Source: a virus (taxonomy: Duplodnaviria; Heunggongvirae; Uroviricota; Caudoviricetes). Taken from it: a stretch of DNA of 64,000 bases. Under the pieces are notes generated by a model. The model was not told where the DNA came from. It did no database searches and saw nothing but the letters and a program-made list of their open reading frames with translations. The stretch is from IMG/VR virus record IMGVR_UViG_2778260994_000001; one strand, 5' to 3'. Below are positions 30,485 to 30,820 of this stretch, in pieces (positions within the stretch are counted from its first letter, which is position 1; each line of letters begins with the position of its first letter). A program made the translations under genes and the position numbers.

Positions 30485-30820
30485 CCAGTGATTGTGGTGG
30501 TCGGTGCTGAACTCCGACACAGGGTTGTAGCAAGCCCCGCAAAGCGCGCACTACTGTAGTTGCGGCACATCAGCCTGTACATTCACCACAATGTTGAGAA
30601 CACTGGTTGTCACGCGGCAACGCAACATTTATTCATAGATTGGGATATGACCCCGTTACGCCAATGTTCTCAACGTTGTAGTGCCGGTTACGGTTCCGGC
30701 CAGGCCTCTTCCTCAACGGGGTGTTCTCCATACGGACTACCGTTTATTGGTCGTTCCTGCGGTTTATGTTGTGAAGCCAGATGCTTATCTTCTGGTTGCT
30801 TCTAAGAGCTGCACTTCATC

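Follow-up and report, generated by a model that had tools for sequence, protein, structure and literature searches.

Small structured RNAs other than tRNAs have been described in phage tRNA clusters, such as the species 1 and 2 RNAs of T4 (rnaC/rnaD), which are released from a common precursor. In lambda, the leader of gene N contains a hairpin whose basal stem is an RNase III site uncoupling nutL from the N message. Enterobacterial prophages encode STnc100 and PasD, related small RNAs (sRNAs) bound by Hfq (bioRxiv 10.64898/2026.05.13.724894); PasD is abundant and Hfq-dependent, and has targets by the ligation and sequencing of interacting RNAs (RIL-seq) in enteropathogenic E. coli (PMC8550237). 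The put RNA of HK022, about 70 nt long, acts in cis in a phage leader, in place of nut sites, and consists of two adjacent stem-loops (PMC9378689). Here we consider the spacer at positions 30485-30820 of a 64,000-nucleotide stretch of viral DNA (IMG/VR record IMGVR_UViG_2778260994_000001; the whole stretch is called the window), situated between a tRNA-Thr and a tRNA-Ser gene, and an RNA motif at its edge, which we call E57. Extra stable RNAs in phage tRNA clusters and prophage sRNAs of the STnc100/PasD type were already known; what appears to be new is the E57 motif found across phage groups and in N leaders, the unit composed of a hairpin plus such a domain, and the interpretation of the P1 genes upl and plp as RNA.

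Judged from its sequence, the window is a P1/D6-like phage-plasmid. We read the spacer as untranslated RNA of the minus strand, a part of a tRNA and small-RNA island, about 1.4 kb long, that belongs to the ban operon repressed by C1; jointly with the module and processing model given below, the probability of this reading is, in our estimate, about 0.55. All four tRNA genes are on the minus strand, and hence, if the spacer is co-transcribed with its neighbours, it should be read on that strand.

The E57 motif

E57 is a three-way-junction RNA motif. Its position in the window and its parts are as follows.

30767-30826, minus strand: E57 (covariance model R1)
P1, the closing stem: GUUGUGAUG (30817-30825) with CUUCACAAC (30768-30776); in the family 8-9 bp and very variable
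J1/2: AAGUGCA in the window, mostly AAUUGCA in the family
P2: GCU[CUUAGA]AGC (30798-30809); in the family 3-4 bp, the loop having C as its first base and GA at its end
J2/3: AA both in the window and in the family
P3: CCAGA[AGAUAAGCA]UCUGG (30777-30795); in the family a fixed stem with the loop AGAY(A/C)AGC-R

The motif was collected by two pattern scans of IMG/VR, the first leaving J1/2 free and the second leaving free the P3 loop and its 3' strand. Each produced at least 100 contigs, and the matches listed comprise 63 distinct versions if flanks are included and 53 if trimmed to the motif. The R1 model, built on these sequences, has a single match in the window, on the minus strand only, with 79.1 bits (E = 6e-23). 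In the model-guided alignment of the 53 sequences, 94% of cells are paired and changes on both sides are seen in nine of 17 pairs. The number of compensatory cells is 118, compared with 33±5 after column shuffling and at most 23 when the partners are slid. The same picture of covariation emerges from an independent MAFFT alignment. RNAalifold applied to the latter recovered P2 and P3 but not P1, the 3' strand of which is displaced by a bulge; P1 was confirmed on the model-guided alignment. The observed variants of P2 are GCU/AGC, GUC/GAC, GUU/AAC, GGG/CCC, GGC/GCC, GCCG/CGGC and GCUG/CAGC, and the pairs of the motif include G-U states. Thus, E57 is a conserved RNA structure. Variation is free in P1 and P2, in contrast to the constant J1/2, J2/3 and P3; with J1/2 left free, its forms were AAUUGCA, AAGUGCA, AAAUGCA and, in one case, AAUUUCA. 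The divergence of the stems, not shared by the junctions and P3, means that the fixed bases are under selection and not simply young. A specific partner or a tertiary fold is suggested by the invariant bases of the junction and loop.

No Rfam family matches E57 in the window (E up to 10), in 12 other E57 loci or in nine relatives, and a literature search with the core sequence returned only unrelated eukaryotic papers. A looser pattern, scanned against genome contigs, gave mostly chance matches in unrelated phyla. Several specific identities were considered and dropped. A pseudoknot between UGC of J1/2 and GCR of the P3 loop is unsupported, as rare variants break the pairing and none compensates; by eye, the P3 loop has at most two or three A-R-N repeats of the type bound by Hfq, which is not convincing. 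Mimicry of a CRISPR repeat was suggested by the string GCAGCUCUUAGAAG in the window, to be compared with the type I-F repeat, GCAGCUUAGAAA; the identity was rejected, as this segment varies between the E57 copies.

E57 occurs in four unrelated settings, and in all of them its orientation is that of local transcription. Firstly, in P1-like and SSU5-like phage-plasmids it directly follows tRNA-Asn and/or tRNA-Thr; in pJN2-26 it lies four bases ahead of the same odd tRNA-Ser that bounds the spacer in the window. Secondly, in Sasha-like phages it is found downstream of the capsid operon. Thirdly, it occurs in long non-coding arrays past apparent late promoters and terminators, where a GU-rich linker and then an intrinsic terminator often come after it. 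In many lambdoid contigs (L133, L170, L209, L084, L091 and L007) a conserved GU-rich linker (AUUGCUGUGUGUAGUCUUUGG) and an intrinsic terminator are present about 25-60 nt downstream of E57; genes for sRNAs of the Hfq type are laid out in this way, E57 taking the place of the 5' domain, and no Rfam family covers the arrangement.

The fourth setting is the N leader of lambdoid phages with N of the lambda, P22 or phi21 type. Here E57 lies between nutL and the Shine-Dalgarno sequence of N, with matching boxA and boxB upstream, and the distance from the end of its core to the N start codon is 39-45 nt. Such leaders are carried by many Stx2a-converting phages and by HK140, mEp213, mEp235, mEpX1, mEpX2, Kapi1 and SPN9CC. 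P1 is lengthened by an outer stem, e.g. GGCUUUGGCGGUGAUGUG/CGCAUCACAGCCAAAGCU in L070, and the N leader of lambda itself (L340) has the same base, GGCUUUGGGGUGUGUG/CACACACCACCAAAGCU, in the same place and with the same ribosome-binding region next to it. The likeness to the lambda hairpin is therefore one of position and basal stem, whereas the upper part of the latter, about 100 nt, is unrelated to E57. The tops in P22 and in Sakai Sp5 (L342) are different again, so that E57 is the fourth kind of upper cassette on a basal stem that is kept. Sequencing of small RNAs from P22 infection demonstrated accumulation of the 96-nt P22B from this leader hairpin, ending 16 nt before the start of gene 24 (PMC13397905); hence at least one such top is a discrete RNA. 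The N leader of Sakai Sp5 has no E57, the best match of the model being 13.8 bits elsewhere in the locus. EcOnc20, known from cross-linking and analysis of cDNA (CRAC) with Hfq, was rejected as a source of data on E57, being located upstream of pL in Sakai Sp5.

The position in leaders raises the question of antitermination: the modules could be cis-acting elements that counter termination or Rho, like HK022 put or the boxA of rrn operons, and carry the polymerase to ban through about 1.5 kb of untranslated RNA, terminators included. They do lie in long untranslated leaders, and in several contigs and in the Citrobacter phage phiNP a domain of the E57 type is found 25-40 nt ahead of an intrinsic terminator. 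In the window, a terminator after the DicF-like RNA (31534-31553) and a U-run near 30160 are both upstream of coding genes, and E57 contains AGCUCUUAG, resembling boxA. However, the boxA-like string is the variable P2 stem-loop, different in other copies; E57 in the N leaders is downstream of a complete nutL (boxA and boxB), where the polymerase has already been modified; and put is formed by two side-by-side stem-loops rather than a closed three-way junction (PMC9378689). We consider this account clearly unlikely. More specifically, the description of E57 as a nut site, with AGCUCUUAG as boxA and the hairpin as boxB, was rejected, since this segment is the variable P2 and a full nutL is present upstream in the lambdoid leaders. 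Identity with a put-like RNA was rejected on architecture: both are phage leader RNAs, but put has a triple helix, no enclosing stem and a position directly after the early promoters, whereas E57 is a junction with a covarying outer stem downstream of nutL.

A bolder suggestion is that E57 represents an undescribed class of autonomous RNA-processing elements, possibly a small self-cleaving ribozyme, inserted where long untranslated transcripts need cutting. Between nutL and N it would stand as a substitute for the upper portion of lambda's RNase III hairpin; in P1-, SSU5- and Sasha-like phages it would lie between tRNAs and small RNAs. A three-way junction of about 58 nt with about 25 invariant junction and loop bases and free stems, strand-specific and recurring at known processing positions, fits this suggestion, which we nevertheless hold to be a very improbable one. 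A milder version would have the fixed bases recognised by a single conserved host protein.

A mosaic of exchangeable modules

The DNA around the spacer is 97-99% identical in D6, P7 and P1, and likewise in hundreds of P1-like E. coli plasmids. At larger distances, BLAST matches of the spacer break into sub-segments, each with different phages.

30762-30837: Sashavirus, P22-like Salmonella phages and SSU5-like Klebsiella phage-plasmids (82-94%)
30659-30765: Citrobacter phage phiNP
30815-30906: Enterobacter phage BUCT554
30491-30673: phage CMS-2020a

In the alignment of the window with P1, D6, RCS47, P7 and Ro157, entire modules are swapped or inserted with sharp boundaries. The first hairpin has two alternative interiors, P7, Ro157 and RCS47 being different inside the same stem base; an additional unit of about 196 nt is found in RCS47 and an insert of about 160 nt in Ro157; the last domain has a different interior in D6 and P7; and the presence of tRNA-Ser varies. 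The modules of the window, in the order of the minus-strand transcript, are the following; E57 falls between the first and the second.

30820-30906, minus strand: LH1, long tRNA-derived hairpin with the stem CACAAC-A-GGUAAGGG.../...CCCUUACC-GUUGUG
30684-30766, minus strand: M2, ending in the hairpin GCCGG-AACCGUAA-CCGGC, then AC
30584-30683, minus strand: H22, hairpin with a 23-bp stem, CACUACAACGUUGAGAACAUUGG/CCAGUGUUCUCAACAUUGUGGUG
30491-30592, minus strand: E-long, multi-helix junction domain closed by AUUGUGGUG (30584-30592) with CACCACAAU (30491-30499)
30170-30290, minus strand: third junction domain, STnc100/PasD-like sRNA, closed by GCGGUG.../...CACCGC, with a U-run near 30160

This arrangement suggests that the spacer consists of two tandem composite units, LH1 with E57 and H22 with E-long, M2 being placed between them, and that a third unit follows tRNA-Ser and ends in the STnc100/PasD-like sRNA. 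Each unit has a tRNA-derived hairpin, in which an acceptor-like stem (14-23 bp) encloses a hairpin resembling a T-arm. Moreover, the hairpin and the domain share a strand. The six nucleotides GUUGUG, with which the 3' arm of LH1 ends, also begin the 5' strand of the closing stem of E57, and the end of the 3' arm of H22, AUUGUGGUG, doubles as the 5' strand of the closing stem of E-long. The same overlap is present in unrelated loci (L020, L084, L007 and phiNP). As the hairpin's 3' arm also takes part in closing the junction domain, the two structures are mutually exclusive.

LH1 encloses a perfect T-arm, AGGGUUCGAAUCCCU, its stem being of 14 bp with a further stem. It folds at -28.9 kcal/mol (z = -2.7), the stem forms in the fold of the whole spacer as well, and it covaries in pJN2-26 and Sasha (GGUAAGAGC/GCUCUUAUC). 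Neither ARAGORN nor the Rfam tRNA model calls a tRNA in 30487-30907, LH1 included; only isolated T-arm-like hairpins and acceptor-like stems are found there.

H22 contains the inverted repeat from which the first-pass annotation, made on the letters alone, had derived its proposal of a structured RNA. The repeat is real, although the two strings are at 30590-30606 and 30661-30678 rather than at 30587 and 30660, and they extend to 23-nt arms (30584-30606 and 30661-30683; 87% Watson-Crick, 54 nt apart), making it the second longest of 13 inverted repeats (at least 16 nt, within 150 nt) in the window. Among the 23 stem positions, 20 are Watson-Crick, two are G-U and one is A-C; the interior holds a hairpin like a degenerate T-arm (GGGGUCAUAUCCC) as well as another small hairpin. 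Taken alone, the minus strand of H22 folds at -39.9 kcal/mol (z = -6.2, none of 200 shuffles being as good), and the plus strand at -34.9 kcal/mol (z = -4.1). In relatives only two stem positions vary, with pairing kept or improved on the minus strand: C to U yields U-G in the window, and A to G yields C-G in D6 and P7. The support for H22 comes from its membership in a class of similar hairpins.

The proposal of a non-coding, co-transcribed structured RNA thus holds as a whole, being supported by the covariance model and covariation of E57, by the lack of conservation of the only sizeable open reading frame (ORF) and by the bias towards G-U pairs described below, whereas the 17-nt repeat on which it was built is nearly invariant in relatives, without independent covariation. 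Of the checks offered with the proposal, covariation is strong for E57 (30767-30826) and absent for the repeat itself, and the Rfam scan of 30487-30907 gave no match even at E up to 10. The extent had also been drawn too narrowly: the repeat is only one module of a larger array, which reaches past 30485-30820 and spans about 30170-31350.

In a side observation on this larger array, the minus strand of 31062-31350, upstream of tRNA-Asn, has another long hairpin, which opens, at 31331-31345, with the same CACAACAGGUAAGGG. After it, at about 31117-31125, the string GAAUUGCAG appears for the second time, and the hairpin GCCGGAGACGUACCCGGC is found immediately before tRNA-Asn. This may be a further, partial hairpin-plus-domain unit.

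Modules are swapped with sharp boundaries at recurring CACAAC/GTTGTG strings, and the long hairpins resemble transposon-like elements in having conserved ends and differing interiors; one could suppose that the elements act as DNA: as palindromic protein-binding or recombination sites or as miniature inverted-repeat insertions whose transcripts are irrelevant. The good fold of the plus strand of H22 (z = -4.1) would agree with that. Yet the stems of 13 long hairpins have 26 G-U pairs versus eight A-C mismatches on the minus strand, that is, on the transcribed one, which favours RNA of this strand; E57 with its G-U states is seen on one strand only and its orientation tracks transcription everywhere; and no transposase or recombinase is linked to the modules. 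The DNA-level explanation is, in our opinion, quite improbable.

M2 is also present in phiNP (about 88% identity) and in the IMG/VR locus L020. Its terminal hairpin is a copy of both acceptor strands, 5' and 3', of tRNA-Thr of the phage, and is similar to P3 in the junction domains. Together with the T-arm-like hairpin in every long hairpin (perfect in LH1, degenerate in H22), the differing content of close relatives and the fact that the region is non-essential (PMC10695390), this could mean that the modules are decaying remains of duplicated tRNA genes without a present function. We find such decay very improbable: across unrelated phage groups E57 combines compensated divergence of the stems with a fixed junction and P3, which indicates purifying selection, and the same modules are retained in N leaders with no tRNA genes nearby.

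The phage phiNP yields one more observation. On the minus strand of its locus L218, at about 860-1590, a non-coding region of about 700-800 nt starts at an early promoter adjoining the repressor gene and contains M2, a long hairpin with two T-arm-like hairpins and a domain of the E-long type, ending in an intrinsic terminator. It looks like a dedicated long non-coding transcription unit.

A possible relation to STnc100/PasD and a proposed processing scheme

E-long repeats the order of parts of E57: the closing stem, AAU, a short hairpin with a six-base loop ending in GA, and at the end a hairpin, C and the closing strand. In particular, the closing stem is followed by AAU, the P2-like hairpin GUACA[GGCUGA]UGUGC, two inner hairpins, the P3-like hairpin UCGGAG[UUCAGC]ACCGA and C. 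In the comparison of the window, P1, D6, P7 and the RCS47 insert, compensatory differences are seen in all three shared helices, and the P3 loop of the RCS47 insert is AGAUCAGCA, identical to E57 variants. The score of the R1 model on E-long is only 7.5 bits. By eye, we infer E-long to be kin to E57.

The domain at 30170-30290 is preceded by the third long hairpin (about 30283-30398), and its hairpin and U-run come immediately before the next ORF (29900-30136). The Rfam model of STnc100 (RF02076) scores here 37.8 bits (E = 2.5e-6) and so falls short of its gathering score, 47. At the same place in P1, D6, P7, RCS47 and Ro157 the scores are 33-43 bits; in P1, where the element is unannotated, the score is 33.4 bits. 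The consensus of STnc100 has the closing stem, AAU, a hairpin, a long middle part, CCGGGAGGCACCCGG, C and the closing strand. PasD2 of strain E2348/69 starts with a domain of the same kind, with the closing stem, AAU, a hairpin, a GC-rich hairpin and the closing strand, after which come a single-stranded seed and a terminator. By eye, the layout of E57 and E-long resembles that of STnc100/PasD (EcOnc13; sRNAs of lambdoid prophages), all of these are phage-borne and enterobacterial, and the sub-threshold STnc100 match is within the same array. The differences are that E57 is minimal, at 58 nt, lacks the single-stranded seed and the terminator, and has its own P3 loop (AGAUAAGCA) and junction (AAUUGCA). 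The STnc100 model has no match within 30485-30907, where E57 and E-long are situated, at E up to 10. Neither model detects the other, and it is the layout that suggests the kinship; E57 has the look of an STnc100/PasD 5' domain reduced to a minimum. The sequence of PasA, as read from E2348/69, is unrelated.

The neighbourhood of an STnc100/PasD-like domain, those being Hfq-dependent base-pairing sRNAs, and the layout of E57, GU-rich linker and terminator found elsewhere, which is usual for sRNAs, suggest action in trans. The modules might be base-pairing sRNAs, or sponges that display the GcvB target motif CACAACA, as the prophage anti-sRNA AgvB does. Indeed, CACAAC occurs four times in 30768-31345, compared with about 37 times in 128 kb of both strands, and GCACAACAGG stands right after tRNA-Thr, CACAACA being the consensus of GcvB R1 targets used by AgvB (PMC4104026). 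On the other hand, most copies of CACAAC are paired with GUUGUG in stems. The closing stems of E57 in N leaders have other sequences (GAUGCGAUG, GAUGGCGCG), so that CACAAC is not a feature of the E57 family. Finally, neither E57 nor E-long is followed by a terminator in the window, no terminator-like site being found within 30485-30907. We regard action in trans as unlikely. As to known anti-sRNAs, AgvB and AsxR (RF02702, RF02703) are RNAs of 51-60 nt with a variable seed at the 5' end and a conserved terminator domain at the 3' end. Rfam has no match to them in the spacer, and the spacer has no terminator; only CACAACA is common, and the build of AgvB-type RNAs is different (PMC4104026).

Returning to the untranslated minus-strand RNA, we infer that its modules serve for processing and stabilisation and yield small stable RNAs. 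The island would be transcribed as one precursor together with the tRNAs. Host RNases would then cut it, RNase P and the enzymes of tRNA 3' ends at the tRNAs and RNase III in the long double-stranded hairpins. Once a hairpin is removed or opened, the GUUGUG strand would be free to pair with the downstream CACAAC and to close the junction domain, and the closed domain would be a compact, end-protected small RNA of the same kind as the 5' domain of STnc100/PasD. The stems of H22 and LH1, of 14-23 bp, would suit RNase III as substrates, as in the lambda N leader: about two turns of nearly unbroken double strand are provided by the 23 positions of H22 and by the 14 bp of LH1 with its further stem. 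The T4 species 1 and 2 RNAs are likewise situated in a phage tRNA cluster, the difference being that they are not modules common to phage groups; no similarity to them in sequence or structure is expected.

Several points weigh against this reading. The minimum-energy fold of the whole spacer forms LH1 in full and does not form the closing stem of E57, so that E57 would need cleavage or kinetic folding here. H22 is nearly invariant across relatives and has no covariation of its own, and the fold of M2 by itself is no better than that of shuffled sequences (z = +0.5). Since the copies of E57 were collected with exact patterns, some of the invariance that it seems to have is a product of these patterns. 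The kinship of E57 with E-long and STnc100/PasD consists in the layout and short shared strings, to which the models are blind. Lastly, knock-down of plp, upl and trnT in P1 by CRISPR interference did not affect plaque formation (PMC10695390); hence any function of the region is dispensable for lytic growth in the laboratory.

The upl/plp frames and the neighbouring genes

The absence of a credible ORF in the spacer, stated in the first-pass annotation, agrees with our analysis: the only sizeable frame is Cys-rich and not conserved as a protein. The position between two tRNA-like genes was also recognised correctly, with tRNA-Ser(UGA) on one side and, on the other, the tRNA-like hairpin (30827-30907) and then tRNA-Thr. 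The features in question are listed below.

30560-30805, plus strand: Cys-rich ORF of 81 aa that begins with TTG; homologue of P1 plp (5' part); judged spurious
31737-34001, minus strand: dmt, ORF of the window
30986-31061, minus strand: tRNA-Asn(GUU), first of the tRNA cluster (ARAGORN; Rfam tRNA model, 74.5 bits)
30908-30983, minus strand: tRNA-Thr(UGU) (ARAGORN, Rfam); its 3' end, ...AAUCGGCACCA, is directly followed by GCACAACAGGUAAGGG, the 5' arm of LH1
30400-30486, minus strand: odd tRNA-Ser(UGA), bounding the spacer on the 3' side of the transcript (ARAGORN)
28989-29064, minus strand: tRNA with the CAU anticodon, annotated as tRNA-Ile2 in P1 (ARAGORN)
27339-28709, minus strand: ban, ORF of the window

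In P1 (NC_005856) and RCS47 the same DNA is annotated on the opposite strand with upl and plp, the latter as a putative lipoprotein, and the window retains the 81-aa ORF, so that plus-strand proteins might be encoded here as in the P1 annotation. However, the plp frame, translated in 69 related loci, has a TTG start and 12 different lengths (44, 81, 84, 90, 103, 113, 119, 125, 131, 139, 143 or 152 aa), and past residue 85 or so its sequence switches completely with the resident RNA module, the C-terminus being replaced at each module swap. The end of the P1 ORF overlaps tRNA-Thr of the opposite strand. The window copy is shortened by a change in an RNA loop, its stop codon TAA (30803-30805) resulting from one base in the P2 loop of E57, CUUUGA in P1 and CUUAGA here. 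The annotations of D6 and P7 have no plp or upl ORFs; no Pfam family matches Plp, Upl or the ORFs of the window; and the genes are non-essential in P1 (PMC10695390). Given that the length shifts with every module swap and that Pfam has no match, we consider the plp ORF spurious. Both plp and upl are probably annotation artefacts, and the existence of the proteins is scarcely credible.

The homologous segment of P1 has dmt, with the C1-controlled promoter Pban, on one side and ban on the other. About 200 nt past Pban, in the region called dicF-like in P1, a strong site resembling an intrinsic terminator is seen on the minus strand of the window (31534-31553). The DicF-like sRNA may end there, and the tRNA island downstream may depend on read-through.

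The tRNA-Ser(UGA) gene is atypical. The general Rfam tRNA model has no match to 30400-30486, and with the tRNA-Sec model the score is 42.9 bits, less than the 47 of its gathering score. The long acceptor stem and the six-pair D-stem recall the allo-tRNAs similar to tRNA-Sec, here with a serine anticodon. The gene is present in D6, P7, CMS-2020a and SSU5-like plasmids (Klebsiella pJN2-26), and absent from P1, RCS47 and Ro157.

On the minus strand of 29092-30136, two other ORFs stand in place of P1 tciA, tciB and tciC. One, of 78 aa, looks hydrophobic by eye; the other, of 275 aa, has a lipoprotein-type signal (MKKTLISAAIILGSLCLTGC), and its homologue in RCS47 and Ro157 is annotated as a putative serine protease. 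Elsewhere in the window, 38644-38837 is densely filled with inverted and direct copies of TGTGTGCTGGAGGGAA, supplying six of the 13 inverted repeats. Rfam matches above the gathering score, all on the minus strand, are the sok antitoxin RNA (47721-47895), the C4 antisense RNA (51354-51441) and isrK (51486-51564), that is, the addiction and immunity RNAs of the P1 type, as expected.

The upl and plp annotations of P1, together with their copies in hundreds of P1-like plasmids, thus probably stand for RNA of the opposite strand. E57 links phage groups that share almost nothing else, namely P1-like, SSU5-like, Sashavirus, P22-like and Stx-converting lambdoid phages, and its position on the N-leader stem, at which RNase III controls N synthesis in lambda, provides a concrete handle on this control in phages with other leader tops. 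The array suggests that STnc100/PasD sRNAs, tRNA-derived hairpins and E57 are exchangeable parts of one toolkit, and such a toolkit would help to explain the origin and spread of phage small RNAs.

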